Positions 13,060 to 64,000 of a DNA stretch of 64,000 nt are shown in pieces. The stretch is taken from the NCBI GenBank assembly GCA_050250375.1, contig JBFWOS010000003.1, positions 559,286 to 623,285 on the forward strand, read 5' to 3'. Each line of letters opens with the position of its first letter. The first letter of the stretch is position 1. The notes under the pieces were generated by a model. That model was not told where the DNA came from, did not search any database, and was given only the letters and a program-made list of their open reading frames with translations. The position numbers were made by a program, and so were the translations under genes. Origin of the DNA: Candidatus Omnitrophota bacterium (GTDB lineage: Bacteria; Omnitrophota; Gorgyraeia; Zapsychrales; Zapsychraceae).

Positions 13060-13061
13060 CG

Positions 13062-14042: not shown

Positions 14043-14180
14043 TCATTACTTTTACATAAGCCCGATGGTTAAGCCATAAAAAGACAAAATCTGCGTCTAT
14101 TCATAAGACCGTATTATAAATCCTTAACCAGGATTTCGTAACAGAAATATTACCATTGCTTTTGATAGATTGTTTTATAA

Positions 14181-39300: not shown

Positions 39301-42300
39301 GAACAACCTCTACGTCAATCGCGTTATAGTTCCGTATATCGGTATATCGTGCAAAGAATTTGGTGATTCGTACAGCGGTATAAATCAATGCTGCGGCAGA
39401 AAGGACACCTGCCAGAACAGCTAACCAGAACCATGCGGTCGTTCCGGAAGCACCCATCAGGAACGGCGTTACGGCCAGGATGACGACAGCGCGCAAAATA
39501 CGGTCACGTCGTAAAGTTTTCGCCGCCGGAGGCGCGCGGGTTTCTTTCGTTGAGACCGTTTGGTTATGTTTCTTTCTGAGACTGAGGACCTGTTTGATCA
39601 ACACAACCGGAATGGTGACAATCACGGCTAACGCCGCCACGGCCAGCCACGGGCTGTGCTCAAATCCCGGTGTAGCGGACAACCCAAGAATCACGGCCAG
39701 GATGACGCTAAACGGTGATGTCATCAGTTTGGTTGACTCCGGCGCCTGCCAATCCCGGCTGGTGATCTTATCTTTGCGACGGATGGACATCAGTTTTTGT
39801 TCAAGGACATCCTGCAATTCTTTGCTTAAAGGTTTATCATCCTTAAGGAGAAGCAAGGTATCGTAAGAAACCTGTCCGATATCCGCATCCCCGATAACCT
39901 CTCCTGTCCCGGCGTGGACGTTGATGCCCAGTTGAGTAAGAACAGAACTCAATACATACAACCAACCAGAGAAGTTAACGGCGGAGATTTCAAGCAGTGT
40001 CCCTTCTTTGCCCTTGTATGTGGCCCCGGATAATTCGATCTTTGTCAGGATGTCCGTTTGCGGGACATTAAATGAGAGTTCAATATTCGCCTGACGTTCT
40101 TTAGTTTGTGTGGCGGTTTCACCCTCGGTGGCTGTTTCTCGTTTTTCTTGCAGGATATCTTCCGGCCGTACTTCTTCATTAATCATGCGTTCGATATCGC
40201 GTTTCATATCGGCCAATAAATCTTCCCAGGCCGTGCTGATGCCGGTGCGGTGTTCAACAAAGAAGTGGTCGATGACCAGACCGGAAGGTCCAAGTCCGAC
40301 TTTGTAGTTACGGCGGGCGAATCCATACGCCAGCAGCACGACAGAAATCTTGTTTAAAATACCCGGCCGGTCTTCATCCATCGGGTCAAACCGGATGAGG
40401 ATCTCTTCCGTCTTGCCTCTGACCGGCGAAGCACTGGACGGATTACTGACTGAAATGTTGATGCGGTCGTCGTGAGAACGGTCTTGCATGACCAAACGTC
40501 TGTCCTCTTCTACTTGTCTGGCCTGTGAGGCGCTCAGCGTTTGCACAACGTAATTCCTGTCACCGATGCGTTTCAGGTCAACATCGAAGACCGGATAGTA
40601 ATCTTTCAGACGCTGCGCGATACCCTGAGGCTGCAGAACGCTCATCTCGATCATGGTAAAGACCGTCAGCAGGGCCAGGCGGATCGGATCGTTTCCTATG
40701 ACTTCCTTGAAGAATTCGGCCATATCCGCCGGATTATCACCCTTACGGATGCGGGCGATCAATGCTTTTTGGTTTTCGATCAACCAGACGATCAGCCGTG
40801 TTTCGCGGCTGAACGGCAGCATGCCCATTCTGGCCAAAACGAAATACAATCGTCCGGAGTGGAACATTCCGTCAATACCGGCCACGATGTGGACCGGAAG
40901 GAACCGGCTCAGGCCGTTGATAATCCATTCCGGTGTGTGACCGTTGGTGTGCATCAACAGGGCCAGGCGCAAAGCCCGTCTCAGGTTATGACGGGTCAGA
41001 TAATCAATGCTTGGTTCCAGTTTGGCCTGCATGTCCGCAAAGACGGCCTGATCCATATCGTGGACCATTCTCGGTTCATGGAACATCAGCGCCTCACCGC
41101 GGACAAACGTTGCGACCGTGTAATGGTCTAACGTCAGATGATGCGGCGGATCAAGGTGACGGCGGTACATCAGTTCTCCGAAACCAAAAACAATCTTGGA
41201 CAGGATATTGTTGTTGGCCTTGTCCGCAAAATATCTTAATCTCCAGACGCCGGCGGTCAACGGCGCGTTGACTTTCATGTATTGGTGGACGAATCTGAAC
41301 CGCAGCAGCATCCATGTCCACCATCCGGCGGTTTCCATTTCGCGTTCGATTCGGTCGAAGATCCCGCCTCTTAACGCGGTCGGATAATTAACGGCAACGT
41401 TGGTCAATAAGTCGAACAATCGCGGCAGATAACTGCGGCGTTTCGGCTGTTGATAATCAATCGCCAGCGCGCGTTGGTTGTCGCGGTGCTGGAATCCGTC
41501 TTCCAGCATGAGATATGTTCCGGTTCTTCTGACAACCACAATGTCGTCCGGAAGGCTGGTGTCGATGGTTTCCGGTACGACCCTCAATTCATCGGCGCCT
41601 GACAGGATGAGCCTCAACCGTCTGAACGCGAACGTAAACAAGCGGTCTTGCGCCCTTCTTAAATCTTTCAGGAATTCCGGAATGATCTCTGCCGGTGTCC
41701 CGGTATAGCCCAGTTGGGCGGCGATCAGGGCGTATTGGTCAACCCTGACCCTGGTGCGGTTGGATTTGATGTTCATTTGCCCGACGACCGCGCGGACTTT
41801 CAGCAGCAGGATGTACGCGCGCCGGGCTTTTTCCAACAGGTCGCGGTCAAACACACCTTTATTCAACAGATAATTCCAAACCGCTGCATCCGGGATGAAT
41901 TCTTCAGAAGCCAAAGCATTGGTATCGGTGTGTTCGGCGATGAAGCCCGCCAATCCGATTGAATAGATTGTCTGCAGGTCTCTTAATGAACCGTTGCCTT
42001 CCTTCAGGTTAGGCTCTTTGGTATTCAAGCCTTCGCGGAAACCGTTCTTTTGGTATCGGATCTGCCATTCCAGACGTTTAAGCTTGGCAAAAACCAGCGG
42101 ATCAACATTGTAAGCCTGTTTCAGTCCGGCGAAGACTTCCATTCTCCAGCCGTTCCAGATTGAACGATCTCCGGCCACATAACGGGTCTCAAGGATAGAA
42201 CTCGCGATCTGGACCTGGGCGAGGTTTTCCGATTCCCAGCGGATGGTTGAAGCGTTCGGAACAAATTCAACCTGTTCATTGAATACTTCCGTAACCACCA

Positions 42301-45300
42301 TGCGGACGAACCGAAGTAATTTCAACTGGCGTTCAAATTCGGCCAATACGGCTTGTTTGTCCGCATCGGATTCATCGACAAACCGTTTGATCGCTTTAAA
42401 TTGATAATCAAAGTCATAAATGGCTTCGACCTTTTCCCGTTCCCCGGCCGGAACGAACTGCATGACTTTATCATGATTTTCTTCATACCCTTTCACTTCG
42501 ATTCTCAAGTCGAGGTCTGAACCCGGGACATATTCACGGCGGGCATAACTTCCGTGGGCCATGAAGGTCACATCCCCGTCATCGCCGAATCGTTCAACCG
42601 TATAACGGTTCAATTGAATGACGATATGGTCCAGCCGGCGGGTGGTCAGGTCAGTCTTAACCTGGATCGGCAGCCGCGCGTGGTCAACCCAGATATAGTT
42701 AAATTCATATTCCCATTGTTTCTTTAAAATCTGTGCTGTTTGTTTGATCGCCTCATTGTCATCGCCGATTGCACTTAAACGAATATCGAGCGTGGTTTTG
42801 ATTCTTTCCAACCGTTCGTTCAAACGCTCTTCCAATTCTTTGACCTGCGCGGCAACTTCTTCTTCGGTGAGATTAGACTGTTCGGATTCTTCGTCTTTCT
42901 TTTTACGGAACATGAACGGCCATAACATGGCGAGTACATACGGATTGTTGGTGGTGGAAGACATGACCGTTGACGGATCCGCGCCCATCAGATAAATGGT
43001 GACGATGGCCGCTAAGACAAACGCCATGATGATAAAACTGATAAAGCCGTTTTGTTTCAGCATTTTTGCCAACTTTTTAATGCGTGAATTTTGTTTTTTG
43101 TTGCTGCCTGCAAAGAAGTATTCATCCGTATCGATCTTTGCCTTGAGGTCGTTGTGTTCCTGTTTGGCCAGGTGGGCGATCACTAAACGGTAAATGATGA
43201 ACGACTGGATCAGATCATTCTTATCAAAGAAGTTTGTATTCAGAACGATTGTGTTTCGGTCAAAGTCGATGGCGAATAAATGTCCGTTTGAATAGATCGA
43301 TGAATCCGTCAAAATAAAGGTGATTTCGCGAGGCAGATCAAATTCCGGCGGTCCGCGCGTCATCAGATCCCCGATGACATCGTTGATTTTCGCCAGGAGG
43401 ATCTCTTCGCGTTGGCTGGCCGGTTCTGATGATGTTTTTTCGTAACGGTTTTCAACCAGCCTGACTTTAAATTCGACGCTCAGGTCTGCGACCACTTGAT
43501 CCATGGTTACGTCATCGGTTTTATGACCTTCTTCACCCTTAACGCCTCTCAGCCATTGTTTGACAAAGTCGAAGAACGATGTGAATACAATCACATTATG
43601 GTTGGCCTTTTCAATAATCTTGAATTCGAATCCAAACTTGTCCGCAAAGGCTTTATTTGTTTCAACAGGCGTGACCATGTCTTGCTGGCCGACAGTGACC
43701 AGGACTTTAATACCGTTTTGCCCGATATTTTCCGCCAAGGCAATTGATTCATCCGCGTCAATTTCCAGATGGCGGTATAACCACAATGTCTCAAATCGCT
43801 GACGGAAGCTGCGTTCAGCCACGTTGGCGTGTTCGATCAGTTTATTGTATAGGTATGAATTAACTCTTAGGAATTGGACCACTTTTCTGAATCCGAGTTC
43901 CCTGAAGAAGGCCTGCATACGGACCAGGGCTTTATTCGGCAGGATGTGAAGCATCATGACCCCCCATAAAATCGGACGGAACATGGAAATTTGTCTGTAC
44001 GGCAGTGACGCGAACACAACACTGTTGATATGGCTGATCGCATCGGAAAGAATGTTCTTGAACCGGAATGACTGCAGCGTGTAGCGGTTGGTCAAAAGCG
44101 CCAGCAGGATCCGTCCGCCGAACGAATGGGCCACGATATCCATTTTATGTGTCCTGACTGAACCGGTTGTTTCATAAACATTTAAATTCACTTGTTTAAG
44201 CAGGGATTTGATCTGCCGTTTCAGCCAGGAAGATTCCTCTTCTTCAACGATTTCAAATCCGTTTTGGGCAAAATGGTTGATGACCCAGGCCAGGAATACT
44301 GTTGACCGGGCGACAATGTGGTCAATCTCAAGAATATTTCTCAGGACAACTTTTTCCTGGATGGTTAATTCCTGACCGCCGATGCTTCCGGTTTCCAGCA
44401 GTCCGCGGATAATCTTGTCGGATCTCCAGTGCTGGATAATGACGATAGTGCGCTGCGGATACAGCCTCTTCAATTCTTCCATGTTAAACGTGAGCGTATC
44501 AACGACACCATGAAGGAACAGGATCGGGCTGCCGCCGGCCTTATGGACCTGGAAGGCGTACGGCACATCGATGGTGTTGTCTGAATATGAATTGTATTGT
44601 TCTTCCTGGGTTGGCACATCTTCCACATAAGTATCCGTATGATGCCGTCCGTTACCATTGCGTCTCAGTCGGGATAAGCGTGAACCGTTACCTTTATAAG
44701 CCTCGATGACTTTTGTCAGGGCTGCCCTGGCGCCGGCCGGTCCGTGTTCCGGCAAGACAATAACGTCTTGCGGCATGCCGGCGTAAATCTTCGGTCCGAC
44801 CATAACGCGGGTGGCTTTCGGCAGGGCCGCGAACATCGGATGATCCAGTTCGCTGTCTCCGATAACCAGAATGTCTTCTTCATTAATTCGAAGATGATCC
44901 AGCAGATCGCGTACCGCGCGTCCTTTATCGGCCCGGGATACGTGCAGAGCGACGGATGACACCAGAACGTTCAGGCTGCTGAACCTTTCGTCAGCGGCCA
45001 GACGGCGACGGATGCTATCGGCCAAATGTGTGCGGAATTCAACTGTTGTATTTTCCAGCCACAACTTCAGATCAAGGGTCTGTCCTTCGAACATGACACG
45101 GTCCAGAGGCATATCATCCGGCAGAGTTCTGAGCCGCTGTCTGGCCAGATTATATTCGTAGCCGATAATGCCCATAACTTCTTCGATTTCATCATCGGTA
45201 GAAGCCAGGATATCCAGATAAATCGGAATATCGTAATCGATCTGGCCTTGACGGTTGAACCGGTAACCAATTCCGCCGTTGGCGGTATACATATATTGCA

Positions 45301-48300
45301 GGGCCATGGCTTCGGTCGTCAATCGGTCGCTGAACCTGGCTTTGGCGCGGGTGATTGTTTTGCCGGTTACCGCGGCCACCTGAACGCCAAATTGACGAAG
45401 CTGTTCGACGATTTGCACCGATTCATTGTCAAACGCGGTCTGATCATCTTCCGCGTTTCCGTGAAGCAGGGAATCATCCAGGTCGGTAATGACCAGCTTG
45501 AATTTCTTCTTCAGGCGGCGGTCGATTTCGTCGGAAGCGGCCTTCGCTTTTTGGTACTTGGATAATTCAGCGCTGTAAAGCTGTCGCAACGTTTGTTCAA
45601 TGGCTTGTGCGTAATCCACGGATACCAGATAACGTAAGGTCGCCACGGAACGGATGATCTTGCCGTCAATGTTGGCCATAACGTTCACTTCGTATTCATC
45701 TGCGACATCAACCAGTCCGCCGATATCGATCAACACAACTTTATCATCAATGATGCCGTGATTAACGAATGAAGGATCCTGGTTAATATAACCGTATCTC
45801 CTCAGCTCTTCCTGCAGGGTGATCCATTTTTGGACAAATGTGTCGATTTCGTCAAACCGTTTTTCCTTGGCCAGCAACTGTAATTTTCGGGCAAGCGTCA
45901 TTTCAACTTGTTGTTCCGCGGTCGAAACAGTGACCTTCCACGGCCAGCCGCGGACCCGAATGGTCTGCTGTCTGAACTCGTATTCAGCCGGGATAATACC
46001 TGTATCAGCCAGATTATTTTCTATGGTCCGTTCCCGTTCAAAAATCTTGTAGGCGTCTTTTTCTTCCCGGTCGATCACTTTGGCCAGGCGTGGGATTAAT
46101 CTCAGGACTCTTGTTGGGGTGACGATCAGGATCATAAACGCGACCGCCCGAATGATTCTTCTCGCCACTTGTCTGACCTTCATGGATAACGAATCCGGAC
46201 TGAATGTGTTAGCATCCACAATAATCCTGTCGTCTGACAAGAGCATTCCCCTTAATCGGAAAATGACCCATTCGGTTAAGCGGATGGCGAGCTGTTCATT
46301 GAATGACCGGAATCGTTTGATGACATACGTGCCGTTGCCGTAAACCACTTTTTCCCAGCCGGCGCCGATTCGTTTCAACGGTTTTTTCTTGAGTTCTTCA
46401 ACATCTTCTTCCGGCAAGAAGATCAGCCCTGAGGCGGCTAATGTAAGTTCTCCTGAACCATTGTTTAACAATTGGTCGGCCAGCCCGGCCAGACCCAGGA
46501 TGATCATGGCCTTCGGCGTTCCGCGCAACTTGGCGATCAGGCTTACGATAAATAAATATATTCTTAAGTACGCCGGTGGTGCCCGTAATTGAACGACTGC
46601 GTCTCTTTCGCGGACATACTGAACTTCGTTCGCCGGCCCGTAGAGCATGAAGATTGCATCCATGCCGGTGTACCTTCCGTTTTCAATCACGCCGACATTC
46701 CACTTGACGGCCCCGTTGTGTTCATGGAATCCCTGGGCTGAGGCAGGACTATAGGTGGCCAGGTATTGTATGCCTTCCCGTTCGGTTTGGTCGCGTTGAG
46801 CGAGGACTAACCCTTTGGCCAGTCCTTTGACCGGTTTTCCGTTGATCAAATAATAATCTTTTCTTTCTTTCGAGACTGTCCTGGCATCCGGCGCCCCGAG
46901 GGCAAAATTGAACCGCGCGTTAGCCGGCACATCAACGCTTCCACTCAAGGTGAACTTATTGGTCAGGCGATTGACGGATTTGAACATGCCGGAACGGATT
47001 TTCTTTGTCTGGATATGTTTGATCATGCGCGGTGATAAATATTTATCCACACTCCAGATCAACGCGCCGATAAAGTTTCGTTTTGTTTCCTTATCGATAA
47101 TTTGGGCAACAACGATGCCCTTGTTGTTATTTCTGATTGCGCTGCGTAATTGTTTCATCGTGACGGTTTCTTGCGGGGTAGTCATCCACGCGTCGTTGTG
47201 AACCTGGGTTAACTCCGCAGCTTCCGCGGTATAAGCCCAGCGATAAATCACATAGGCATCTTCACGTTCGTCAATATTGAAGAAAATCAATTCTTTGGCC
47301 GGGATGCGTCTGGCATCGCCGAATTTTTGTTCGACAAACCGCTCTAACGCAACCGGGATCACATTTCGGCGGACATAAAGCATCGGCATTTCAGTTCCGG
47401 TCTTGAGATGTTCGACCCGGGCTCTGTTGTATTGCTGGATGACTTTATCCCATGATCCCTTAATAACCTTACGGTCGACAAACATTTTCGCCAGCAGTCC
47501 GGCCAGCGCACCGCCGATAAGCGTTATGAACAATTCAATGCCGTCAAAACTGTCTCTGGCCGTTTCGGTGACACCGGATATTTCTTGAGCTTGAGCTTCG
47601 CCACCCATAAATCCGAAGGCTGTCAATGCCGCCGCGGATATACCCACGATGAACAACAGAGTGGACAACGTGGTAAACCCGCCTTCTCCCCGGTCTTTCT
47701 TCGGCCCGTCGCGCGGTTGCTGCGGTTCATGCTGATCGGTGGCCGGGGCTTCGGCGTCTTTCCTGACCGCGTTGCCCTGATCGGTCACGCTTCCTGGATT
47801 GAGTTCTTCCTGGAGCCGGATGTACAAATGCAGATATTCATTGATACTGCGGGTCCAGTCGTTATTGATTGACATTCCGTTTTCAATTAACGTTCTCCAG
47901 ATAGACGGTGCAAACTTATATGTTCCCCAGGCGCGTTCGATCGCATGGTGTAATTGATTTTTATTTTCCCCTCGGGCGATCTCATTGCCTTCTCTGTCGA
48001 GCATCCTTGACAGCCCCTTGAACACAAACCCGTTTGGTTTTGATCCGCCTTCAAACACGGTATCCGCCAGGCCGCCGGTCAGACGGACGATCGGGATCAC
48101 TCCATAACGCAAGGCGAGCATTTGAGTCAGGCCGCTCGGTTCATAATCAGACGGAACAAGCAGGACATCGGCGGCTGAATAAATATGCTGGGCGATCTCG
48201 TCCACAAATCCCTGCAGATAAACGATGGATATATTAATATTTTTCTTGCGGGCGTCTTCGGCCAGCTGGGCAAACCGTTGTTCCAATTTTGAATCGCCTG

Positions 48301-51300
48301 AACCGCCGACGATAATATCGATATCCAGCGCTTTCATCCGGCCGGCGTACATATCATCCACCATATCGGCCAGGATATCGAGCTGCTTTTGTTCAACAAG
48401 GCGGGACACGACGCCCACCAGCAGACGATCGCTGCCAGGAGTCAGGTACCCGTGTTTGGTTACTTTATCTTTCGTGACTTCCTTCACGTCACGGCCTTCC
48501 GCGAGCATTTCCTGAAGATGCTGTTTGTTTTGTGCGCGGGCTTCAAGGACGGCATCAATACCCTGCTCGATGGAATAATTCTTGAAGAACACTTTGTTGG
48601 TTGACGGATCATTCAATCTGAAGTGAATACCGTTTAATATACCCTTGAACCGTTCGCCTAATGTCTTGAGCAATGTCAACCCGCTGAATAATGTGTCGAT
48701 GACTTCTTTCAGATAACCGCGGCTGACCGTATTCACGGCATTACCCAGGGCGCTGATCTTAGTGAATGTTTGCGGGACAATACCCATCATATTGATCCGG
48801 CTTCTGTGGACGACAAGCTCCCTGACGGCCGGAAACTCTTCTAATCCGAGTTCAGGATACAAGGCCTGCGGATAAGATCCCTGGTAACCGATGTTGTGGA
48901 TCGTAAACAGATTTCCGGTGCGTTCAAAATGTTCTTTATGGATCGTACGCATGTAGAGCGACACCAGGGCTGTATGGTGATCATGGGTGTGGACAATCGC
49001 CGGTTTCAACCCGATATGTTTCATTAACTCCAAAGAGCCCCGGGATAACAGGATTGATTCATAGAAGCCGGTGCGTTCGGTCTTATAGGCTGAATCAAAG
49101 AATTCCGTCGAGTCGGCATCCAGCATGTAGACCGTGATGCCTTCAACGGTCAATTTCTTAGCCGTCAGGACGACATTTTCGTTTTCCTTGAATGGTACTT
49201 CAAAGGCGAAACCTTCGACGTCTTCGGCCCCGGCATAAGCCGGATTTACGGCCAGTTGTTTGAAGTAAGGAATGATGACCACCAGATCGTGTCCGATTTC
49301 GGCCAGGGCTTTAGGCAGTTCGTACATAACATCTCCCTGTCCGCCCTTCTTGACCAGCGGCCCGAATTCCATGGCGACCAGAGCAACTGTGCCTTTGAAG
49401 TTTTGTTGAATGGTCACACGGCCGTTTCCGTAACTGACGTCTGCCCATTCGCGTGAACCGTCTTCGTTTTCAAGGACAAACGTGTATTCGAAATTACGTT
49501 CGACGATTACCTTAACGGTGTAGTGGGCGCGGGACTCGGTGTTTTCAATAAAGGTCACCGGATGGGTATAATCTTTCCATTCTCCGTCCATATTGGAATG
49601 AAGGATAACACGGCGGGTTCCCGTTTCATCTCTGCGGTTAGCGGCAACTTCCAGTGTAACTTCTTGCCCCACTTCAACCGTCCTGAAGGCATTCACAATC
49701 TGACCTCCGGTGGTTGACCTTAAGGCCGCGATGAATTCACGTGTCCCGCGGTACATGACAACACCCAGCGGCGGAACAGTAATTTCGATGGAGTCGGCAC
49801 GGCCGTTTGAGGCGACCGGCTGTGTATTGTGTTTGTCTCTGTCAACGACATCGCTGCCGCCGTACTTGACTGAATCACTGTTAAAGACCGGTTCCCAAAG
49901 GCCGGCAAACGGCACACCTACGCGGTAATCCTGATAAACAACCGGTGTAAAGTTGGCGACAACCAGAACGACTTCATTCGGGTTTTCACTCCTGCGGATA
50001 AAGCTGAGAACCCCGCGTTCCGCGTCGTCAAAGTTGATGGCTTCGAACCCTTCCCGGCTAAAATCAAAACGGTGCAGGTTGCGGTCGTTCTTGTAAAGCC
50101 GGTTGAGGTCGCGGACCAGGGTTTGAATGCCCTGGTGCAGCGGATACTCAAGCAGATGCCATTCGAGGTCACGGTCCGGATTCCATTCCGCGGTCTGGGC
50201 CAAATCAGCGCCCATAAACAATAACTTCTTGCCAGGTGTGGCGAACATCAGCGCGTACAACAGTCTCAAGTTGGCAAAACGCTGCCATTCATCGCCCGGC
50301 ATCTTGCCGATCAGCGAACCTTTACCATGGACGACTTCGTCATGGGCCAGGGCCAGCATGAACCGTTCCGTAAATGCGTACATGCTGTAGAACGTGATGT
50401 CGTTATGGTGGAATCGTCGGTGGATCGGTTGACGGCTGAAATACTTGAGCGTATCATTCATCCAGCCCATGGCCCACTTAATGTCAAATCCAAGGGCCTT
50501 ATCACCGGACTCTATCGGCGCGGTTACACCCGGCCAATCAGTTGATTCTTCGGCGATGGTTATGATTTCCGGATATACCTGATGAGCGGTGGTGTTGAGT
50601 TGACGGATGAATCGTACCGCCTCAAGGTTTTCATTTCCGCCGTAAATGTTCGGAATCCATTGTCCTGGTTGCCGGCCGTAATTCAGATACAGCATGGATG
50701 ATACGGCATCCACGCGGATACCATCGATGTGATATTCACGCATCCAGTACATGGCGTTGCTCAACAGGAAGCTGATCACTTCGTGACGGCCGTAATTAAA
50801 GATCAACGTACCCCAATCCGGATGGTCGCTTTGGATCGGCAATTCATGAGAATAGAGTTCTGTACCGTCGAAGCGGACCAGTCCGTGCAGGTCGCGCGGG
50901 AAGTGGGCCGGGACCCAGTCGAAGAAGACACCGAAGCCGGCCTGATGCAGCTGATCGATCAAATACTTCAGATCTTCCGGCGTCCCGTATCGTGATGTCG
51001 GCGAGAAGTAATTGCTGACTTGGTAACCCCAGGACGGATAATAACTGTGCTCATAAGGAGGCAAGAACTGGACGTGGGTAAATTCCGTTTCTTGTAAATG
51101 CTTGATCAGTTCAGGAGCGAGTTCGCGATAGGTTAACGGGGCCCTTTCGCCTTCTTCTGTCGTCTTGTTCCTGAACGACCCTAAATGGAGTTCAAAAACG
51201 CTGATCGGAGCTGAACTGGCGTTTGACTGAGCCCTTCGTTCCATCCACTTGCGGTCATGCCATCGGTATTTACCTGTATCCGAGACGATGGATGATGTCC

Positions 51301-54300
51301 GGTCCGCATTGTCGCCGGTCGGGAATTCGCTTGCGAAGGCATACGGATCGGCCTTGATCCTGACCACTTTGTCCCGCCCGATAATGCGGAATTTGTAAAG
51401 GGCGCCTTCGGTGACCCGCGGCACATATATCGACCAGACGCCGGTTGATGGATCAAATCTCATGCGGCCGCCTCTGTGCTTCCAGCCGTTGAAATCACCG
51501 ATGACAGAAACGGAGCGCGCATTCGGCGCCCAGACGGCGAAGTAGGTCCCGTAGACGGTATGTTCCGTCTTGACCAGGTGAGCGCCGAGCTTATCATAAA
51601 TCTGGCTATGCGCGCCTTGCTGAACGAATAACAGTTTATCGAGGTCTCCGAACTGCAGGCCTTGCATAATCTTTAGAACGCGGGCTGATTCTTCATCCAG
51701 CTGAATGTGACCTTGTTCGACGGCCGCAGATATTTCGCTGACGGCTTCCGGACGGCTGGCGTACGTCAGAAGGCTGTCCTGAATATAATTATTCAGATAA
51801 TGTTCTTCACGGGCGCTGTTTTGTTCATGCGTCAGATCAAATTCAGCCAGGGCGCCGACTTCATGGATCAAACTGGCCGCCATCTGATTGACGGTCAGGT
51901 ATCCGAGTTCTTCATATTCCGCCGCGTTGGACAGGACGATGTATTCCTCACCGTCATAAACGTAAACAGCAGCGAGGATTCCCGTCACCGGACCGGCGCG
52001 AAGGAGTCCGGCACGGGCCATGGTTCTCAGGCGCTGGGCCATGGCTTTATAACCGTTTGCGCGCAGGTATCGATGGGCGGCGATTACGGCCGGATGATTG
52101 ATGGCCACCATTTCCAGCCGTTTGATATCTTTATCTCGTGATTGTTCAGTGGCGGTTTTAAGGAATGCGAACGCCTCTGGTGTCAACGCTTCAGCCGTTA
52201 CTCTCCATGTCCAGTTGTTTTCAACCGTACCGGGTTTATTCATCCGGGCTTCTTCATCCAGGCCGAGAATATCTTGTAACGGAACGATGGCGAGACGTGA
52301 TTTTGAATCGACAGCCATCTGGACAAAACGTTCATGAATATCTTCTTCTATATTTTCTTCCGCGAGATGTTCCGTTATTTCACGTTTCTGTTCAGCAGTA
52401 GCTTCGCGGGTATACCAGCCTACGGTGGTATTATTATCATGAGTACCGGTGTAGACCACAGAATTTTCAACGTGATTGTCCGGATGGTAACGATGATCTC
52501 CTTCAAACCCGAACTGAAGAACGTTCATGCCTGACAATTCAAATTGTTTAAGCAGGACCGTCACGTCCTCTGTAATAATCCCCAGGTCTTCAGCGATGAA
52601 CGGCAGCGATGGGAATTGTTCGCTCAGATGGCTGAAAAAGTCGGCGCCCGGCCCAGGCACCCATTCGCCAGCCAGGGCGTTTTCGGCCTTGGCCGGGATG
52701 GACCAGTAGCCGGCAAATCCGCGGAAATGATCCAGGCGGACCAGGTCGAAATAATTCAACTGCTGCTGCAGACGCATGGTCCACCAGTCGTAGTTATTTT
52801 CCTTGAGCGCATCCCAAAGGTAAACCGGGTTGCCCCAAACCTGGCCAGTGGCACTGAAGGCATCTGCCGGCGCGCCGGCGACATGAAGCGGCTGGTTGTC
52901 TTTGCCCAGATCGAAATATTCTCGGTGGGCCCAGACATCGGCGCTGTCATGGCTGACATAGATCGGCGCGTCTCCGATAAACCGGACGCCTTTCTCAGCG
53001 GCGTACGCTTTCAAGGCCCGGAATTGTTTGTAGAGCATAAACTGCACAAACATAATCTCTTCAACAGCGGCCTTATGTTGTTCCCGGTAATTGGCCAGGA
53101 TCGTTTCGTTTCTGTCTCTTAATGAATCGGTCCATTCATACCAGGCTTGCCCGTTGTTATTTTCTTTCAGGACCATGAACAACGCGTAATCTTGTAACCA
53201 ATAATTATTGTTGAACATAAAGAGTTCAAATTCACTGTTGCCGTTCTTGGCCTTGAAGCGTTCATAGGCCAGTTTGAGCAGGCCTCCCTTGAAGGCAGCA
53301 ACGGTGTTGTAATCGACCTTGGTTTCATCCGTTGTTTCAAAGGCGGCCGCTTCTTCGGCGGTCAGCAATCCTTCGGCGACCAATTTCTCGATGCTGATCA
53401 TCAGAGGATTCAAGGCGAAGGCTGAATCGCTCAGGTACGGTGAATTTAATGTTGAAACCGCGGTCGGCGTCAACGGCAGCATCTGCCAGTAACGCTGCTT
53501 GGCTCCGGCGAGAAGATCGACAAACGCGTAAGCAGCCGGTCCGAAATCACCGATGCCGTGGCGTGAAGGCAATGAGGTTACGGACAGCAGGACCCCGCTT
53601 TCTCTCGGCTGGATGATCCGTTCGACTTCGAAACGGACTGATTGTTGATCCGGCATTTCTTCTCCCGACACCGGCCGCGCAGGATCTTTGGCGGCGACGG
53701 TTTCGAATGTTCTGACCAGATATTCGAACGGACGAAGCGTGATTGTTTCTTGAGCGGTAAACGCGCTTTGCTGGCCGTTCTCAACATTGGTCCACACGCC
53801 CTGGGCATTACTTTGGCCAGAATTCCACTCTTCCGCCCAGAGGTGAAGGGTGAATTGACGGGTTTCACCGGAATAGTTGGCGATGACCAGCGCCTGTTCC
53901 TGGGCGAGGCTGCGTTGATAGGCGATCACGCCCTTCGGCAAGTCTCCGGTATGAACCGCATTTGTGTCACCTTTGCGCCATAACGCTGATTTCGTTTTAT
54001 TTAACCAGGTATCATAAAATTCCTTCTGTTCTTGATCATACGGCTCGGCTTCATGGTTTTGGGTAACATAGGTTGCGTTCGGTTTTTCGTTTGAACGGCC
54101 GCGGCGCTGGCCGGCGTTGATCATCACCATACCCGGCATGGTCATCATCAGGACAGCGGCTGCTCTTTGTTGTTCACGGTTCAATATCCTGGCGACGCGC
54201 TCGGACGGATCATCATGGTTTTCCAAGAAATGGACGGTGCGCGTTAAATATTCATTTGATGTGCGTTGCCGGTTGGTCAGGTAATCTCTTAATTCTTCAA

Positions 54301-57300
54301 CCGGGAAACGCTGTTCGACCAGGATGTCGAACACATGTTTGTCGTAGGTAAAATGAATGCCCAATCGCTGCAATGCCCCTTCGTGCTGGGCATAACCTTC
54401 GCCGATCAGGATGGCGTTGTTGTATGCACCTAAGAATTCATGCAGGAATCCAGGGATAAATTCTTCTGTTAGGATCTCATTTCCGCCTAACGGTTGTAAA
54501 TCACGGTTGATATGTTCTTTTAACAGCAGATGCGCCATATCGATTCTGGCACCGCCGCCGTTGGTGATATCCAGGATGTATTGCATTTTCGCGGCCATCT
54601 GGGCTCTTAATGCCGGGTTCGACCAGTCTAACTGGGCGGTATCGATCCATGAACCGGAGAACCCTTCTTGTCCGTGCAGAATGGCTTTCGGCCCATTTGC
54701 TGTTTGGACCATAAAGTAACGATTCGTGTATTTCTTGACATCTTCGCGGTTCTTCAAATATTCACTCAGGGTCGTGACCGGTTCATTCAATTGAGCCGCG
54801 TCGCGTGAAATGAACCATTCCGGATGGGCGATGGTCCATGGTGAATCGGCGGCCATGTGGTTCGGAACAAAGTCGACGACCACTTTCAGGCCGGCGGCGT
54901 TGGCGCGTTTGACAAATTTGCGGAACGATCTCTCCGTACCAAATTCTTCGTCGATCGTGTAATCTTTAATGCTGTACGCTGACCCGACCCGTTTTGGATC
55001 CCACATCTTGTTGAAGTCTGTTGTAAATTGTCCTCTCTTCCAGATACCCATCATCCAGATCACATTAAATCCGTCGGCTCTCATCGTTCTGAGGGTTTTA
55101 TTGTCAATTTCATCGAACCGGCGGCCTTTTTCGCGGGTATGCCATAAGAATAAATGGGCGCCTTGTGTTCTGATTTCTTCATCGAGATCAGACCCTGGTT
55201 GCGTAGCGGCCGGGAATTCCCCGCTAACCTTTCGTTCAGCCAGTTCAAAAATTCTGCGGTTATAGTCTGCGTGGACTTTGGCCGCCGCGATAATCGCCTC
55301 TTCCTTGGCCAGCCAGGCGATTTGCGCATAATCCATATCCGGCAATTGCCGTCTCAATGTTTCCATCGCCCGTTGCAGTGTCTGCGCATAAACCTTATCG
55401 ATATCAACAGCCAGCTGGAATAAGATCATTTGTTGTTCGACAGATGGTACAACCCACTTTCTCAGGCTCGGCACATAAACCCGTTTGTGTTTGGCCACAA
55501 ACAAGTTTGGCGGTGTGCGTTTGAAATGAACGGTGCGTTCCGCTTCTTCATCGATCGGGGCGACATTGATCGCGTGGAATTTAACGGCGGTGTAATCGGC
55601 ATTGACCAATCCCGCGCTGTAGATGACAGATGGTGGTGCGTTGATCTGGTTGAGTTTACCGGATGCGGTCTGATCAACGATCACGTAGAGATTATGTTGA
55701 CGCTGCAATCCTGAGGCCGGCACCTTCGGCGTCACATCACCTTCAAGCGCGGCGGCCATAATACCAGCCTTCTTCTCGCCGTTGGCCATGAAGAATGTGT
55801 TGCGGGCTTCAAAGATATCGGCCAAGCCCATGGTATAGGCGTATGGAACCCGTCGGATGTCTGCGTAGTCACTGATGTTGGAATCAATCGTGCTTTGGGT
55901 CAAGCGGATTTGTCTTATTCTTGAGCTGAATTTATTATCGGCTGAAGGTTCATTGAAGGCCAAATGTCCGTTAGCACCGATGCCTAACATCACGATGTCC
56001 GCTCCGCCCATCTGTCTCAACGTTTGCGTATATCGTCTCAGATAAACCGGAAGAATGAAGGCTGTGTAGACCGGGCTTAAGATGTATTTGGTCACAATAT
56101 ACGGGATAGATTTATATTGGTACGGATCATATTTCACATAATCTGCGACCAGATGGATATTTTCTTGCGGGATCGCGACTCTGGAGAACAGGTTCTCGTT
56201 CAAGAAATAAGCGAATGACGCTTGGTGATCCCTGGTGAGACCTCTGTATTCATCCAGATGGAACGCGTTGATGCGTGACCATTCAATTCCTTCTATCCTG
56301 GCCAGTTCGTGCAGGAATTGTTTCATCGTGTTGCCGGTGGCAAAGATAATATTGATCGTTTCTTTAACCTTTAATAATTCTTTTATCTTGGCCGCGACTT
56401 GTCCGGCGGCGCCAGGGGCGAATTGGTCAGGAGCGTACACACTTACGTTATTCGTCTTCGCGGTTTGTTCTCCGGCCATTTGTTCTTTATCCGCATGGCG
56501 AACGGCTTTGAATGCGGCTTTGGCCAGCCAGACAAACGGACCGACGAAACCGATGAAGACCAGATACCATTTATTTCTTCTTAATTGGGCATCTTTAATG
56601 AAGAACCCTTTCTTGTTCACGGCCGATGAGTAGAAGATGTTGAAGAATTGAGTAGAAATACCGTCCAAAGCCACTGCAACCGCAGATAACGCTGGATGTT
56701 GAATCATTAAGCCGCGCAGGATCGAATAGAAGCGGGTCATCCAGAACGCTTCAAATTGTTTTTCGTGGGCCTTAAGCGCTTCTTCTCTTAATTGTTCAAC
56801 ATTGCCACGGATCAGTTCAACCAGCTTGCTATAACCAAACGATCTTAAGCGAACCATCGCCCCAATGCCGACAATCTTCAGGGCAGAGATGAAGGCTGTT
56901 TCTAAATCAGCTGGCTGGTCACCAAACAGACCCGGCATCACTTGGCCGGCCGCCCAGACAATGATAGTAATAGCCAAAGTACCAAGTGCGACGAAACGGG
57001 TTGTCATAAAGAAATTCCTGATTTTGAATGTCTTGAAGAAATTGACCGTGCGGGCTTCCACCATACTTCCAACGACATAGGTCAGGCCGAGGAAGGCGCT
57101 GATCGACAAGATCAGATATCCGAGCATCACACCTTTTGGCGCGATCACGGTGAAGTAGGCCAAACTCAAGAGGCCCATCGCGAGGCCTAACGGGAAGGCG
57201 AGCACGACTTGTTTCTTGATGATGCCGTGGCCACTGATCCACTGTCCGGTGAGGTCGGTGGCGGCCATAAAGATACCGAAGACGATGATATTGGCCACCG

Positions 57301-60300
57301 GAACGGCCACCACGCTGGTCAACAACGCGAACAGATATCCGTAGGTCAACAAGGCCAGGCCGGAGATCGCCGCCACGCTGATCAACGCCTTCACCAGGAC
57401 GCCGTTTCTCGGACGGGAAACTGGCCGTTCGTTCGTTGTTTTACGGACCGGCTCATCCGGCATCATGGCCAGCGGGGCCAATCCGTTCTCAATGACACCG
57501 GCGCGGCCGATGAACAGCGGTTCGATGAACCTGAATGAATCGGCCGGAACGATTTTGTTAACAGCCAGATGCTCCAGGAACAGCGCGGCGTTGAATACAT
57601 GCATGGTCGGTTCGCCGCTTAGATTGGATACTTGGTCGGCCGGGATCGCTTCGCGCATCTTCTCGATTTCCTGATCGGTATCGATAAATATGCGATGGCG
57701 CCGTCCGCGGGCGATCTCATAGGTGATCCAGGCCGGATCAGCCACGGCGCTGTAAACCTTAGGCTGTTTCAGGCCGTTCAATTCTTCTTTCTTAAGGATC
57801 AGGTAAGCGATATCAAATGAATAACGTAATAATTTTTGTTTGTCTTCGTTGCTAAAGCTTGACTTCAACACGTTTTGTTCGACCCTCTTGTTCAACCGTT
57901 TTAATTCTTTACGGTTAAGATCTCTGTCTTCCTTGATGAAGCTCAAAATTTGAGCCGGAACAACCCAGGCAAATCCGACTTCCGGAACAAAATTCCATTT
58001 AAACGCGGTCTTGACCGGAAGTTTGTAGGCAAAATGGTAGAACAACAGGATCGGTGAACGGATCAACCCGACCACAAACGATGAAACAAGATATGAAATA
58101 ACTGCGGCTGCCGCTGTAAAGAAGATGTTTCCGCCGGATAAGCTGAAATAGACGTAAGCCGTTGATGTTGAAACGCCCAGGATCTTGACCGTTTCGGTCA
58201 CGACTTTTGAGGCCAACAATGTATAGAACATGGCCCAGTAGCCGTTGATTTGTTTTTGGGTCAGACGGCCGCTCGCCAGGGCGCGGTGTGAAGCGAATAT
58301 CAGCAGTTTACGCAGGCTGTTGACTTTTACGGTCACGGACTTCTGGGCTGCCCGGCTGCCGGCGCGGGCCATCAGGAACATACCCCATACGGCCAGGAAC
58401 AGGACGAATTCAGCGATCCCCTGTCCGAATTTGTTTAAGGTGGAGGCAACGCCGCGAACTTCAGTTTCCGATTCCCCAATCGTTTTAACTTTAGTTTCAT
58501 GTGTTAATGAACGGGCGCTGCCTCCAACAGGTTGTATTTCTGAAATTATTTCTTGAGAGTCTACAGGGGTGATGCCGACAACTTCGGTTTCCGATTCCCC
58601 AATCGTTTTAACTTTAGTTTCATTTGTTAATGAACGGGCATCACCCCTGTTAGATTTTGTGGAGACAGCACCTTCAACTTTTGCTCCCGATTCCCCAATC
58701 GTAACTTTAGTTTCTGTTAATGAACGGGTGCTGTCTCCAATATGTTGTGTTCCTGTTTGAACTTCTGGTGAAATTACAGGGGTGATGCCGGCATCTTCAG
58801 TTTTCGATTCCCCAATCGTTTTAACTTTAGTTTCATTTGTTAATGAACGGGCATCACCCCTGTTAGATTTTGCGGAGACAGCACCCTGGTCTTCAGTTTC
58901 CGATTCCCCAATCGTAACTTTAGTTTCTGTGAACGAACGACGGGCGCTGTCTCCGACATGAGCTGCATCTCCTTGGAGATACATATCGGTCAATATTCTT
59001 AATTGGTCTGATGTTAATTGCGGATAGTTTGGTTCAATGTCGGCCTGAGGATTGACGCTGAGTCTTTCGGCCGTGAGAGCTTTTTGTCTGTCCTGGGCGG
59101 CGATTTGTGCGTTGATTTGTTCTGACACATCGCGGCCTTCTTCTTCCAGGCGGATCATATCGACGAAGAATGGAATCATGATGACTGGGTCATAGGCTTC
59201 CCAGCTGCCGTTGTTTTCACCGGTACGGCTGTATCTGAATCCGACATGGATATGGTCTTCAATCGGCCGGCCGTTTAAGCGGTCTGCGGCATTACCGGTG
59301 ACGCCTGAATGACCAACGACTTGGCCGAGTTCGACCTGTTCTTGCTGTTTGACATCGGATTTTGTTAAATGACTGAACTCGACGCGGATCCAGATACCGG
59401 CGACTTTGCGGTCAACAAAGACGACCAGCCCGTCTCTGCTTGTCTCGACTTTAAGGATTTGACCTTCCCAAGGCGTTCTGACCGGGGTATTGCGCGGCGT
59501 CAAGAAATCAACCCCACGATGATAATCGCTGTTTAATCTGAACGCGCCGAAATAATTGTACGGACGGATCAACCGTTTGATGACATCTTCAGGTTTTTCC
59601 ACCGCTTGAACGTCGGTTGCATCCATATTCGCCTGCTCAACGGTGTTAACTTGACCGACGGCCCGAAGGGAAAGAACGAGCAGAACGATAAACAACACGG
59701 CCGCGAGTATCACAGAGACCAGGCGTCTTGTCGGTGTTCCGGCTTTTCGGGCTGTTTGTTCCGCGGCGAACAGTTCAGTGACGGTGCGGTCAATCGGACG
59801 GTTATAGTCAAGCGCGCCAAGATTGATCACGATAAACAGTGTTTGATATTTTTTACCCTGATGTTCTTCGTCAATCGTAATGAATCGGTAAGCGTCCCGG
59901 CCTTCTTTGGCTAAAAGATCAAGCACTCTGGTCTGGAATTCCATGCCGCGGGAAGACACATTTCGATTAATGACGGTGTCGATCCCTTTGTTAAACAACC
60001 ACTGCAGCGTTATGCGGTAGGCTTCAACGGAATATTGTTCACGGATCAATTTTGATGAGCTGGTGGAAACGACGGCCGGTTTGCTCTTGCCCCTGAAGAA
60101 CACCCCGATATTCAAGTCGCCGGTTGTCTGGTTTTCACGATCACGTAAATCAAGCAGGATATGTGTCTCTTCCCGTGAGGTGCCGCGGACGTTGAGTCGG
60201 GCGATCTTGCCATCGAGGACGGTTCCGGCGAACATTTCTTCATAAACGGTGTCGGATTTTTGCTGATCGGTCAGGTCTAGATCGACCAATACGACCAGGC

Positions 60301-63300
60301 CGGTCAGTTCGTTCAGATAATTTTCAGAAACTTCAATACCGAACGTTCTGAATGCGTTTAATAATTCTGTCAGTTCTTTTTGGTTGGCGGCTGAAGTGAA
60401 ATAAGAAATACTTGTATTGTTCCGGACCGTCTCCTCATCCTTACCGAATTGTTGATGGCCAAACTCATGACGGAAGACATCCGCCAGCAATGTAATAAAT
60501 TCTTCAGTTGATTTTTTGCCGGCTGTGAATGGCGGCGCGCGTGCGAGGAAGGCGCGGTTGACCATCACGATACCGGCTGTTTCACTATATTCAGCCAGCC
60601 GCTGGGCCAGATCGGTAATTTCTACATGAGCAGCCTGAGCCAGCTTTCCGATCTTTCTTAAGGCTTCAGCCACGTACAATTGTTGATCGATTTCATCCGC
60701 AGTCCGGCCGGACGGGGTATGGCCGCGTAATTCAGCCGGATAATTATGAGATGGACGGTTTGTCATCGGATGGGTCAATATCCATTCCGCCATCAGCCGG
60801 CGGTATAAGGCGGCCGGGTTATCCGCCGCCTTCCTGCGGATTTCCGCGGCGGTCAGCCTGACCGCGTTCAAGACCCCGCGCTGATCGATCAGGCCCCGGA
60901 CATGTTCCAGGTTTTGCGCTGCCGGCAAGCCGAGGATATTCCATCCTTGCAAGAAGTTGCTGACAATCCCGCGGTGCCCGTACGGCGTCGCTTTCAGGTG
61001 GAATTGTTTGGCCGCGTAAGTCACGTCCAGCGAAAGAATTTCCTGTGTTTCCAGTTCGCCCAACCGGGCCATCTGGGCGGCCATATGTTCGATGGTGACG
61101 TACAGCCATTGGGCTTCCTTCGATAACGGGCCGTTGGTCAATTGATGGGACAACTGCCGGACCAGGCCGTTGAGCAGCTTGAAATTCATGGACGGCCATA
61201 TGACCGTACCATGATAGTTGTCTTCAAAGACTTCGTACAGGTCGGCTTCTTTCAGACCGTTACGGTTTTCCGCCGCCAGCGGAGCTTTGACCACACGTTC
61301 CGCAGCCGATACCGGTATGACGTTGGCCAAGACCGGCCCAAAGGTGGTGGCGTTGCCGCCCAAAGCCACCGGGGTCAAGATCACCCTCAGTCCCTGGCGG
61401 ATCTGCTCGAGCGTGTACCCTTCGGCGGTGGTCGTGCCGAAAGTCAGTTCGTCCGTATCCGGCAGGGTGATCTTTTGTCCACTGCGGTCCAAAGCGATAG
61501 CGACATATTCCAGCGTTTCATCGGCCAAAGCCTGATCCAGGAACCGTGACACGCCGGCCAGGAACCGTTCGACGCTGTTATTTTCGACGCGGATATTGGA
61601 ACCAATAATCTTTTGCGCGTCGGTGATCAGGGCTTTTACATACGACAGGTCGCCCATGCTTTGTTCGATTTCCCAGGCCATCCAGGCAAGAATATTCGTT
61701 TTCAATTGTTCTTTGGTACGGGTCACCTTAAACGGCTGGTCGGCCCCGTTCCAGACACCGATCAGCGTATCAAAGTCCACACCGACAAACACTTCAAACA
61801 CGCCGGCTTCCTGAAGACGGCGGATCGCCTTCAGGGCCATCGGCATTAACAGGATATTGATCAGGGCCGCATAGGCGCCGAACCCGAGAGAATTATCCGC
61901 GTCTCTCCATGTCATGCGCGGATCGTTGTCCCTGGCGCCGACCATCGTGCGGTATGTCAACGGCTGGGTGATGCCGCCGGCGATGGCATAAACATGACGG
62001 GAAACGTCTCTGAGAATTTCGCCGACCGTTCTGATTTCTTTTTGATGTCTTAGGAAGACCGGTTCGTTGTGGTCGAGAAGTTTATATCGCAACAACGTTT
62101 CGGCCAGGCTCAACAGCAGCAGTTCCGTATCCACCCGGTTGGCTTTAAACCGTTTCTCCGCGTGCGTCTTGCTGGCGAAACGGATATCGGTTTCGTGGGT
62201 CAACTGCCCTTCCCGGACCAGACCCAGCAGATGGATGAATTGCGAGCGCAGGACTTCCGGACGGACATAGCCGATCAATTCCCGCAGGATGATGACAGTA
62301 TCGCCGCCGAACGGCGTCAGATAATACGGTGAACCGGCCAGAATGGCGGCGTTCTTGGTGATCAGGTATTGACCGGTGTACAGTTGCATCATGAAGCGGT
62401 CATATCGGGCCGTACCGCGTAATTGTTCGGCGGCCTTAAGCACATCAGCAGTATAAAGTTCTTCCAGCGTGTAATGTTCCAGCGGCGTGTGGTTGCTGGC
62501 GATGTCCACCGTGAAGCGCACGGCCCGGCCGTCCGCTGGCCGGCTGATCACCAGACCGTTATTTTCGTTAACGGTGACGGTGGTGCCGGCGTTGAAGGCG
62601 ACCGTCAGGACATAATAGTGGGAGTCACCGTTGCCGTTGTCTTTGGCCGGCTGCAGGGCTCGCAGGACCACCCCTTGAGGCTGACGGATGATCTGCCATC
62701 CGCCGACCTTGATATCATGGCCGTTGCCGACATTTTCCTGAATATCGCGGTTGGCTTCCGGGTCATCCCCGGTGCGGCGGTTATAATTTCTGATTGAACG
62801 GCCGCTGCCGAACAGCATGTTGTCCAGAACCAGATCGCCTTGTGTTTCGACGGTCATGGTGTATCTCACCCCGCTGAATCCTTGCTGGCCGGCGCCGAAC
62901 GGTTGCCCCGGCTCGACGCTCATATAACGGATCGCCGGCACAGACGCTTTACCGTTGATCACCTGACTCATCTCGAAGGTAACCTTGGTGTTTCCGGTTG
63001 CCCGGGAAATATCGATGGCAGTGGTGTCGGCCAGATTGGTCCGCACCAGGTGGCTGAACAGGTTGCGGCCGGTGTCACGGGCCACCACATTCAGAATACC
63101 GCCCTGTTCTTTGACGACGACGGTATCTTGTTCATGATCGATGATGATACCGGCAACAGCTTTCGCGGACGCCAGACGGTTCAACGCCTGCATGTACTCC
63201 GTCTGAACGGTTACGCCGAATTTTCGATAAGCCTTCAGCAACTCGGCCAGTTCCCGACGGTTGACGGTTGATTGGAAGTACAGGATGCTGGTGTTCGCCT

Positions 63301-63976: not shown

Positions 63977-64000
63977 GGCTTCCCCTTCCTGGACGATTCT

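Follow-up and report, generated by a model that had tools for sequence, protein, structure and literature searches.

An in-frame alpha-glucan and amino-sugar enzyme cassette within a giant membrane-anchored protein of Candidatus Omnitrophota

The window analysed here is a stretch of 64,000 nucleotides (nt) from a Candidatus Omnitrophota bacterium (contig JBFWOS010000003.1, positions 559,286 to 623,285), and it carries the C-terminal part of a giant gene that encodes a series of alpha-glucan enzymes. The minus strand holds an open reading frame (ORF) at 21362..63976 with 14,204 codons and zero stops (42.6 kb), and an in-frame stop is also absent from the remaining 24 nt between 63976 and the window end at 64000. 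The gene part visible in the window is therefore given as 21362..64000 on the minus strand, based on this stop-free frame and on a gene call of 32,445 amino acids (aa) for the complete gene, which lies downstream of mutL in assembly GCA_050181705.1 (JBFXCX010000002.1, 872,346 bp). The window contains the C-terminal 44% of the giant gene (14,204 aa), and the other 18,241 aa (about 55 kb, the 5' part) lie beyond it; residues are numbered here from nt 63976. The source record, a metagenome-assembled genome (MAG), names the MutS and MutL proteins as 'Candidatus Omnitrophota bacterium', and mutS and mutL directly adjoin the giant gene. Most of the length of the giant protein has no recognisable domain.

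The segment at nt 47,810-56,431 lies inside this ORF and is an in-frame alpha-glucan and amino-sugar enzyme cassette of the 32,445-aa membrane-anchored protein. Pfam and NCBIfam scans of the translated ORF give the order NagB-like domain, AmyB-like GH13, GH77 MalQ, GlgB, Ig-like beta-sandwich and GT5 GlgA-like domain, all on the minus strand. A preliminary description of this DNA had placed such a set at 47800-56400, which agrees with the domain scans to within about 30 nt, and its claim that the enzymes are contiguous domains of one frame is borne out for five enzyme modules. It had also read the GH13 regions and the GlgA and GlgB signature motifs as intact by eye; the check by alignment gives the same result, with the sole departure of a Leu to Gln change in the K-x-GG-L motif of the GlgA-like domain. 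Every catalytic residue checked is intact across the modules in alignments to solved structures or homologues, and from these residues we infer that the embedded domains are enzymatically active.

The NagB-like domain (aa 2516-2761, nt 55694-56431) matches the sugar-phosphate deaminase/isomerase family Glucosamine_iso (PF01182, 77 bits), and stays below the equivalog cut-offs of TIGR00502 (140.7 versus 236.9 bits) and of the pgl model (78 versus 124). Its active site, LDEY and GIGANGHLAFNEP, is kept relative to NagB in the PDB; in the alignment to 2ri0, HLDEY and LGIGANGHLAFNEP correspond to the active-site Asp and to the His/Glu of G-x-x-G-H-x-x-F-N-E-P. The GH13 domain (aa ~2940-3418, nt 53723-55159; PF00128, 84 bits) comprises the alpha-amylase-family catalytic and C-terminal domains. 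Its closest solved structure is the alpha-amylase 4GKL, and no NCBIfam equivalog was matched in the NCBIfam scan. The four conserved regions read DFVPNH, GARIDMAH, GEGY and FLENHD, and D3146, E3193 and D3255 are invariant columns in an alignment of 22 sequences (the window protein and 21 database homologues). The homologue search with this domain returned only stand-alone relatives of 465-870 aa with 27-36% identity and no giant architectures; giant proteins seem to be under-represented in protein collections.

The next two enzymes score as full equivalents of stand-alone proteins. The GH77 4-alpha-glucanotransferase MalQ (aa 3457-3945, nt 52142-53608) is full length, with a PF02446 score of 569 bits against a cut-off of 25 (model positions 2-464 of 465) and an NF011080 score of 636 bits against 477 (model positions 3-492 of 496). 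Its motifs RLDHFRGF, AEDLG and THDN, which hold the Asp nucleophile, the Glu acid/base and the Asp stabiliser, align with those of the amylomaltase structures from Aquifex and Thermus (1tz7 and 2owc). A linker of 170 aa follows (aa 3946-4115, nt 51632..52141), for which no Pfam family was found. The 1,4-alpha-glucan branching enzyme GlgB (GH13_9; aa 4116-4742, nt 49751-51631) has the CBM48, catalytic and Alpha-amylase_C parts, and lies above the cut-offs of both NF003811 (888 versus 741 bits, model positions 4-617 of 619) and TIGR01515 (797 versus 464 bits). Regions I-IV, with the catalytic triad, are represented by DWVPAHF, GIRVDAV, AEEST and HDEVVHGK, which align to GlgB structures from cyanobacteria (5gqw among the references) and E. 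coli.

The GT5 and GT1 GlgA-like domain (aa 4864-5389, nt 47810-49387) is matched by PF08323 (139 bits), PF00534 and PF13692. TIGR02095 reaches 315.2 bits over model positions 3-476 of 477, just under its cut-off of 328.45, and the GlgA equivalog models of NCBIfam are all far below their own cut-offs. The domain belongs to a divergent GT5 clade with 39-46% identity internally and 28-33% identity to canonical GlgA. Its motifs are KKGGQ, HDHH, IHN, SRLVEQK, EPSGLTQ and TGGLADTV. In K-x-GG-L the Lys and the Gly-Gly are kept and the Leu is replaced by Gln, a change common to most members of the clade, and EPSGLTQ keeps the catalytic Glu. Further marks of the clade, seen at window positions 47810-49708 and in proteins P0017-P0023, are an N-terminal Ig-like beta-sandwich, KxGGQGDVMYELP, NDHH, EP(S/A)G and an insertion after NGFxF. 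An AlphaFold2 model of the beta-sandwich and GlgA unit has a mean predicted local distance difference test score (pLDDT) of 78.6 and a GT-B fold. The top 17 Foldseek matches of the GlgA-like model are all starch or glycogen synthases, with TM-scores normalised to the target of 0.74-0.82.

The beta-sandwich itself (aa 4757-4862, nt 49391-49708) is predicted by AlphaFold2 to have ten strands, with a mean pLDDT of 89. The preliminary description had called this piece CBM-like (carbohydrate-binding module). It is confidently predicted as an Ig-like beta-sandwich, and no CBM family can be assigned to it from Pfam or Foldseek: the only Pfam match is a sub-threshold one to Alpha-amylase_N (E = 0.006), and the Foldseek matches are generic Ig-like/E-set folds. 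The CBM label was therefore rejected as unproven. The beta-sandwich is always joined to the GlgA-like clade and carries some invariant aromatic positions, and a glucan-binding role is plausible for the modelled domain.

The fusion is real and conserved, since an independent Omnitrophota MAG (Gw_Eff_bin_307, locus L004) keeps GH13-GH77-GlgB in an open frame, with 54% identity over one alignment that includes the linkers. This relative was found in a scan of species-representative genomes, and its entire 23.8-kb locus is one open frame that encodes GH13, GH77 and GlgB and then a PALP domain. The alignment to window residues 2779-4747 is a single high-scoring segment pair that runs through the linkers; per segment, the enzymes have 56-59% identity and the linkers 32-49%, with 46.5% for the 170-aa linker between MalQ and GlgB. 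The L004 orthologue conserves the catalytic motifs of GH77, GlgB and GH13. The idea that the segment contains internal units of transcription or translation was rejected, because the segment has no more promoter-like and terminator-like sites than expected from shuffling and the domain N-termini have no Met-rich or start-like context. An alternative genetic code or read-through as the cause of the long ORF was also rejected, as the frame has no standard stop.

Hydropathy scans find about 20 hydrophobic segments in the 14,204 aa of the window part. A cluster of about seven to eight transmembrane (TM) segments precedes the enzyme module (aa 1951-2485, nt 56522..58126) and has 42% identity with L004, and a two-helix TM hairpin directly follows GlgA (aa 5432-5459 and 5482-5496, nt 47489..47683). 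The earlier term 'membrane-tethered' is thus a reasonable one, with hydrophobic segments flanking the module on both sides. The outer flanks of the post-GlgA hairpin have four and five K/R residues, and its loop has one K/R and three to four D/E. Equivalents of this hairpin in L004 and in a second relative, L003, have K/R-rich downstream flanks. Upstream, a Peptidase_M23 domain (aa 1485-1583, nt 59228..59524; Pfam 42.9 bits versus a cut-off of 28.7) lies just after a TM helix at aa 1419-1437 that has a KR-rich upstream flank and an N-in charge bias. The M23 domain is, by this sequence pattern, probably periplasmic, and wall-active and cytoplasmic-type enzymes would in that case be joined in one chain. 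Helix parity from M23 to the module was dropped as evidence of sidedness, as the count is seven or eight depending on one marginal segment (aa 1850-1872). Downstream of the glucan module the same ORF encodes a HAD-IIB phosphatase, an alpha/beta hydrolase, a GlnD-like nucleotidyltransferase and a pyridoxal phosphate (PLP)-dependent PALP domain, as found by Pfam and NCBIfam.

Related giant genes carry different subsets of these modules. L004 lacks the NagB-like domain and also the region of aa 4748-9439 (4.7 kaa), from GlgA to the GlnD-like region. L003 (ENA ERZ25074695 ctg340384, which carries P0001) has the NagB-like domain (69% identity), the post-GlgA hairpin region and GlnD, and lacks GH13, GH77 and GlgA; a GlgC-like gene and a GlgB reading frame lie immediately upstream of its long ORF. 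In L003 a TAG at 8264-8266 interrupts the GlgB C-domain and the same frame runs on for 4,247 aa, with repeats and with NagB-like, TM and GlnD-like parts. This TAG is either a long-read error, the assembly being 9x, or a real stop or read-through site. A third locus, L075, has an open frame of 7,285 aa with RelA_SpoT, PP2C, NUDIX, beta-sandwich-GlgA, methyltransferase and HAD domains. The beta-sandwich-GlgA unit also occurs as a stand-alone gene of 701 aa, and as one of several consecutive long genes. A metagenome contig scan with the GlgA-clade alignment confirmed three loci, a count that gives no estimate of prevalence.

When the whole 2,921-aa segment was used as a homologue query, only 13 proteins were returned, all of them matching the NagB-like domain. 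In P0002-P0013, proteins of 1.7-4.7 kaa from Omnitrophota, Elusimicrobia and FCPU426, the NagB-like domain is fused to varying partners, among them PGM, UDP-glucose pyrophosphorylase, ROK kinase, enolase, fructose-bisphosphatase and aldo/keto reductase. An ORF of >4,221 aa in a MAG labelled 'uncultured Planctomycetales' (CAYTIW010000010.1, locus L005, 4691-17353) starts with a complete GlgB that is 51% identical to the window GlgB, followed by HD_4, GerE HTH and methyltransferase domains. Long proteins headed by GlgB are thus not confined to MAGs with an Omnitrophota label.

An exhaustive HMMER search with the GH77-GlgB stretch gave as best matches MalQ-GlgB two-domain proteins of 1.1-1.45 kaa with the same order. 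A Hydrogenovibrio locus (L007) has separate genes for glgC, GH57, malQ, glgB, glgA and glgP in that order. Comparison of these loci suggests that operon-like gene sets would first have been joined by fusion and later moved as cassettes from one giant gene to another, because the malQ-glgB-glgA order is that of the Hydrogenovibrio genes, MalQ-GlgB proteins of the same order are widespread, and the related giants hold different cassette subsets.

Several other features were observed in and around the giant gene. The C-terminal ~2,300 aa (aa ~11865-14130, nt ~21590-28380) consist of tandem units of about 230-250 aa, with copies up to 71% identical and no Pfam match, and the L004 giant carries a homologous C-terminal repeat region. 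A short unit of about 70-110 aa stands beside TM segments at three sites, aa 1659-1851 (nt ~58420-59000), aa 9033-9210 (nt ~36350-36880) and aa 9941-10048 (nt ~33830-34150), with several further copies at the start of the L003 ORF. A chunked self-comparison found a duplicated domain of ~158 aa with 50% identity between its copies, at aa 111-268 (nt 63173-63646) and aa 1070-1227 (nt 60296-60769). Both copies have the sequence HEFGH (HExxH, zincin-like) and neither has a Pfam match; the domain may be a metalloprotease relevant to self-processing. Beyond the 3' end of the giant gene, at a distance of 8-13 kb, window positions 7834-10426 and 11593-13131 encode an Amidase_3 protein (N-acetylmuramoyl-L-alanine amidase), a GspD-like secretin and a Rce1-like CAAX protease with TPR. 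Of these, the secretin gene occupies 8954-10426, some 11 kb away from the giant gene's 3' end.

The segment is probably a membrane-tethered module for glycogen synthesis and remodelling at the cytoplasmic face, derived from fused and shuffled operon-like sets; we consider this reading of the sequence moderately likely. The module would act as a tethered glycogen enzyme set. The GlgA-like domain would elongate alpha-1,4 chains from a nucleotide-glucose donor, GlgB would add alpha-1,6 branches, and MalQ and the AmyB-like GH13 would recycle and trim malto-oligosaccharides. The NagB-like domain would convert glucosamine-6-phosphate to fructose-6-phosphate and bring amino-sugar hexose phosphate into the same pool. 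ADP- or UDP-glucose is the donor for GT5 synthases, and glucosamine-6-phosphate the substrate of NagB. The neighbouring modules in these giants are predicted from their domains to use nucleotides, S-adenosylmethionine or PLP. By the positive-inside rule, the charge pattern of the hairpin would place the glucan module and the HAD and GlnD modules that follow it in the cytoplasm. The cytoplasmic-face placement is favoured because of the hairpin charges, the need for nucleotide-sugar and sugar-phosphate substrates, and the cofactors of the neighbouring domains. Glycogen synthesis has been inferred from genomes for many Omnitrophota (PMC8542988).

Some points weigh against this reading. The ambiguous helix count between the presumed periplasmic M23 domain and the module leaves parity unable to decide the side. 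DeepTMHMM and TMHMM put most metabolic domains of other giants outside, although the authors doubt some of these calls (bioRxiv 10.1101/2023.11.21.568195; 10.64898/2026.06.07.730766). The GlgA-like domain is divergent, with KxGGQ for KxGGL, low identity to canonical GlgA and a score below the TIGR02095 cut-off, which leaves some doubt about its donor and acceptor. None of GlgC, PGM and GlgP was seen in the C-terminal 14,204 aa of the 32,445-aa protein. As the preliminary description had noted for GlgC and GlgP, scans of the giant ORF within the window and of seven neighbouring genes found neither domain (PF00483, PF00343); this absence from the window says little, because the window holds only part of the gene.

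The module might instead be exported and face the periplasm, the cell surface or prey, where it would either break down or reshape the alpha-glucans of prey, or else assemble an alpha-glucan outside the cell. An extracellular location is predicted for most annotated domains in both giant-protein preprints, the GspD-like secretin gene is about 11 kb away together with the Amidase_3 gene, and the M23 peptidase in the same protein points to an envelope-directed activity; the ambiguous helix parity also leaves room for export. In the same PVC superphylum as Omnitrophota, Chlamydia trachomatis secretes glycogen enzymes and uses host UDP-glucose in the inclusion lumen (eLife 2016, PMC4829429). However, the nucleotide-sugar and sugar-phosphate substrates of the GT5 and NagB-like domains are unavailable outside the cytoplasm, the post-GlgA hairpin with its positive outer flanks and acidic loop recurs in homologues, and the flanking modules are of cytoplasmic type (HAD phosphatase, GlnD-like and PLP enzyme here; RelA/SpoT, PP2C and NUDIX in L075), all of which make export unlikely. 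The preliminary description had suggested, as one option, an exported capsule machine like the GlgE-derived glucan of mycobacteria. Nothing speaks for this idea: scans of the giant ORF within the window and of its neighbours revealed neither GlgE nor TreS nor Pep2, the substrates are of cytoplasmic type and the hairpin charges point to the cytoplasmic side, and a GlgE/capsule pathway was rejected. A polyprotein, in which the giant ORF would be cut at the linkers into ordinary soluble NagB, amylase, MalQ, GlgB and GlgA and the tethering would have no functional role, is rather unlikely. Each module is a complete enzyme of stand-alone type with stand-alone homologues, the window part contains the M23 peptidase and the two copies of the 158-aa HEFGH domain, and West-Roberts et al. 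propose that giant proteins are cleaved by C39 or S8 peptidase domains. Against cleavage, the window part has no recognisable cleavage sites and no C39 or S8 domains, the linkers are conserved at 32-49% identity and do not drift freely, and the TM hairpins between modules suggest that positioning matters.

The GlgA-like GT5/GT1 domain could also glycosylate another acceptor (a protein, a lipid or another glycopolymer), with GH13, GH77 and GlgB serving only maltodextrin catabolism. The divergence of the clade (KxGGQ, NDHH, EPSG, the extra insertion, and 28-33% identity to canonical GlgA) would fit such a role, as would the TIGR02095 score just below its cut-off, and the GlgA cassette occurs in other giants that have no GlgB or MalQ; glycoprotein modification is one option considered by West-Roberts et al. 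This alternative is nevertheless very unlikely, as every one of the nearest matches, by sequence and by structure, is a starch or glycogen synthase with ADP and acarbose bound, the catalytic and acceptor-site residues are kept (the E of EPxGL, the R/K of SRLxxQK, and HN), and the domain directly follows GlgB in the window protein. An artefact (faulty assembly, a chimeric contig, or pseudogenes in a row that happen to read through) might be suspected from a source that is a MAG, and from the stop codon within the GlgB domain of the related L003 in its 9x long-read assembly. Such a run of 14,204 sense codons is beyond chance, however, and a second, independent genome keeps the same architecture in an open frame of 23.8 kb (54% identity), with catalytic residues kept in both. 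A separate Logan assembly also contains the 3' end of the giant gene. An assembly error and chance read-through are both in effect ruled out.

If the module does work as a cytoplasmic-face glycogen enzyme set, a bolder extension can be proposed, although it seems unlikely in this full form. The uncut chain would be a membrane-spanning 'loot-to-storage' line at the predator-prey contact, with wall-degrading modules of the M23 kind outside, and with the NagB-like, GH13, MalQ, GlgB and GlgA domains inside channelling prey sugars into a membrane-attached glycogen granule. If true, an entire storage pathway would run on a one-chain metabolon that lacks carrier domains, and nothing like it would be known among characterised bacterial glycogen systems. 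As a variant, by analogy with the use of host UDP-glucose by Chlamydia, part of the chain may reach the prey cytoplasm and exploit prey nucleotide sugars.

Omnitrophota commonly encode giant ORFs (Seymour et al. 2023, PMC10066038). West-Roberts et al. 2023 define 'Archaeovorin' giants, in which GT5 glycogen-synthase-like plus GT1 is the second most common domain type; they also mention glycolytic enzymes and discuss a possible role in glycogen (bioRxiv 10.1101/2023.11.21.568195). A 2026 preprint describes a 'multi-enzyme metabolic cluster' class, with a sugar-metabolism Pfam module that includes PF08323 (in 153 of 916 long proteins), GT1, PGM and ROK (bioRxiv 10.64898/2026.06.07.730766). The window protein fits both the 'Archaeovorin' type and this class. 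It shares with these giants the phylum, a length of >30,000 aa, many interspersed TM segments, GT5 and GT1 together with other central-metabolism enzymes, a type II secretion-like secretin gene nearby, and the lack of a recognisable domain over most of its length. The Amidase_3 gene and the gene for the Rce1-like protease with TPR also agree with the gene neighbourhood published for such giants. As in these giants, the window protein is without dockerin or TSP3 repeats (no PF00404, PF18884). The divergent SecA_DEAD domain, the HEAT repeats and the C39 or S8 peptidase of 'most' Archaeovorins were not found in the 14,204 aa visible. GH77, the branching enzyme, CBM48 and a serial glycogen set are not mentioned in the texts of the two giant-protein preprints, and one giant-protein supplement holds no GH77, branching-enzyme or CBM48 accessions.

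The preliminary description had stated that these enzymes are separate proteins in all well-studied bacteria, which is not correct, as two-enzyme fusions are known. A MalQ-GlgB fusion occurs in Neisseria (Chem Rev 2024, PMC11046441), and such proteins of ~1.2-1.4 kaa (another is Legionella sp. MBN9229225.1) are the best-scoring matches to the window GH77-GlgB, with 41-46% identity. They have the same arrangement of an N-terminal GH77 and a C-terminal branching enzyme, but are soluble proteins of two domains, whereas in the window the pair is one part of a 32-kaa membrane protein and has three other enzymes beside it. In Waddliaceae and Criblamydiaceae, members of the PVC superphylum and relatives of Omnitrophota, glycogen synthase and branching enzyme are joined in one chain with a branching domain reported to be inactive (Chem Rev 2024, PMC11046441). 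Their order is GlgA-GlgB, in contrast to GlgB-GlgA in the window, where both domains keep their catalytic residues. The classical GlgC-GlgA-GlgB operon with MalQ, GlgP and GlgX, as in the Hydrogenovibrio locus, has the same enzyme families and the same malQ-glgB-glgA order, but consists of separate genes for soluble proteins, and contains the GlgC and GlgP that were not seen in the window. Chlamydia trachomatis is a host-dependent PVC bacterium with a set of GlgA, GlgB, MalQ and related enzymes used in exploiting another cell (eLife 2016, PMC4829429); its enzymes are separate proteins that leave the cell by type III secretion, whereas those of the window are joined in one chain.

Omnitrophota giant multi-enzyme proteins rich in starch-synthase domains were thus known already, as were two-enzyme glycogen fusions. 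What is new is a giant Omnitrophota protein with an almost complete alpha-glucan toolkit of five enzymes in series. It would be the most extensive natural alpha-glucan enzyme fusion that we found described, since the fusions found in the literature join two enzymes. The comparison of the window with L004, L003, L075 and the stand-alone genes gives concrete evidence of giant genes growing by absorbing and exchanging operon-like enzyme sets. Few predicted proteins known are as large as the giants of Omnitrophota, whose function has hardly been explained. This segment can be read unusually well, with five enzymes of well-understood biochemistry, two of which score as full equivalents of stand-alone enzymes. 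It therefore offers a practical entry point to three questions about these giants: on which side of the membrane they work, the substrates here being strictly cytoplasmic, whether they are intact scaffolds or polyproteins, and whether their embedded domains are catalytically active.

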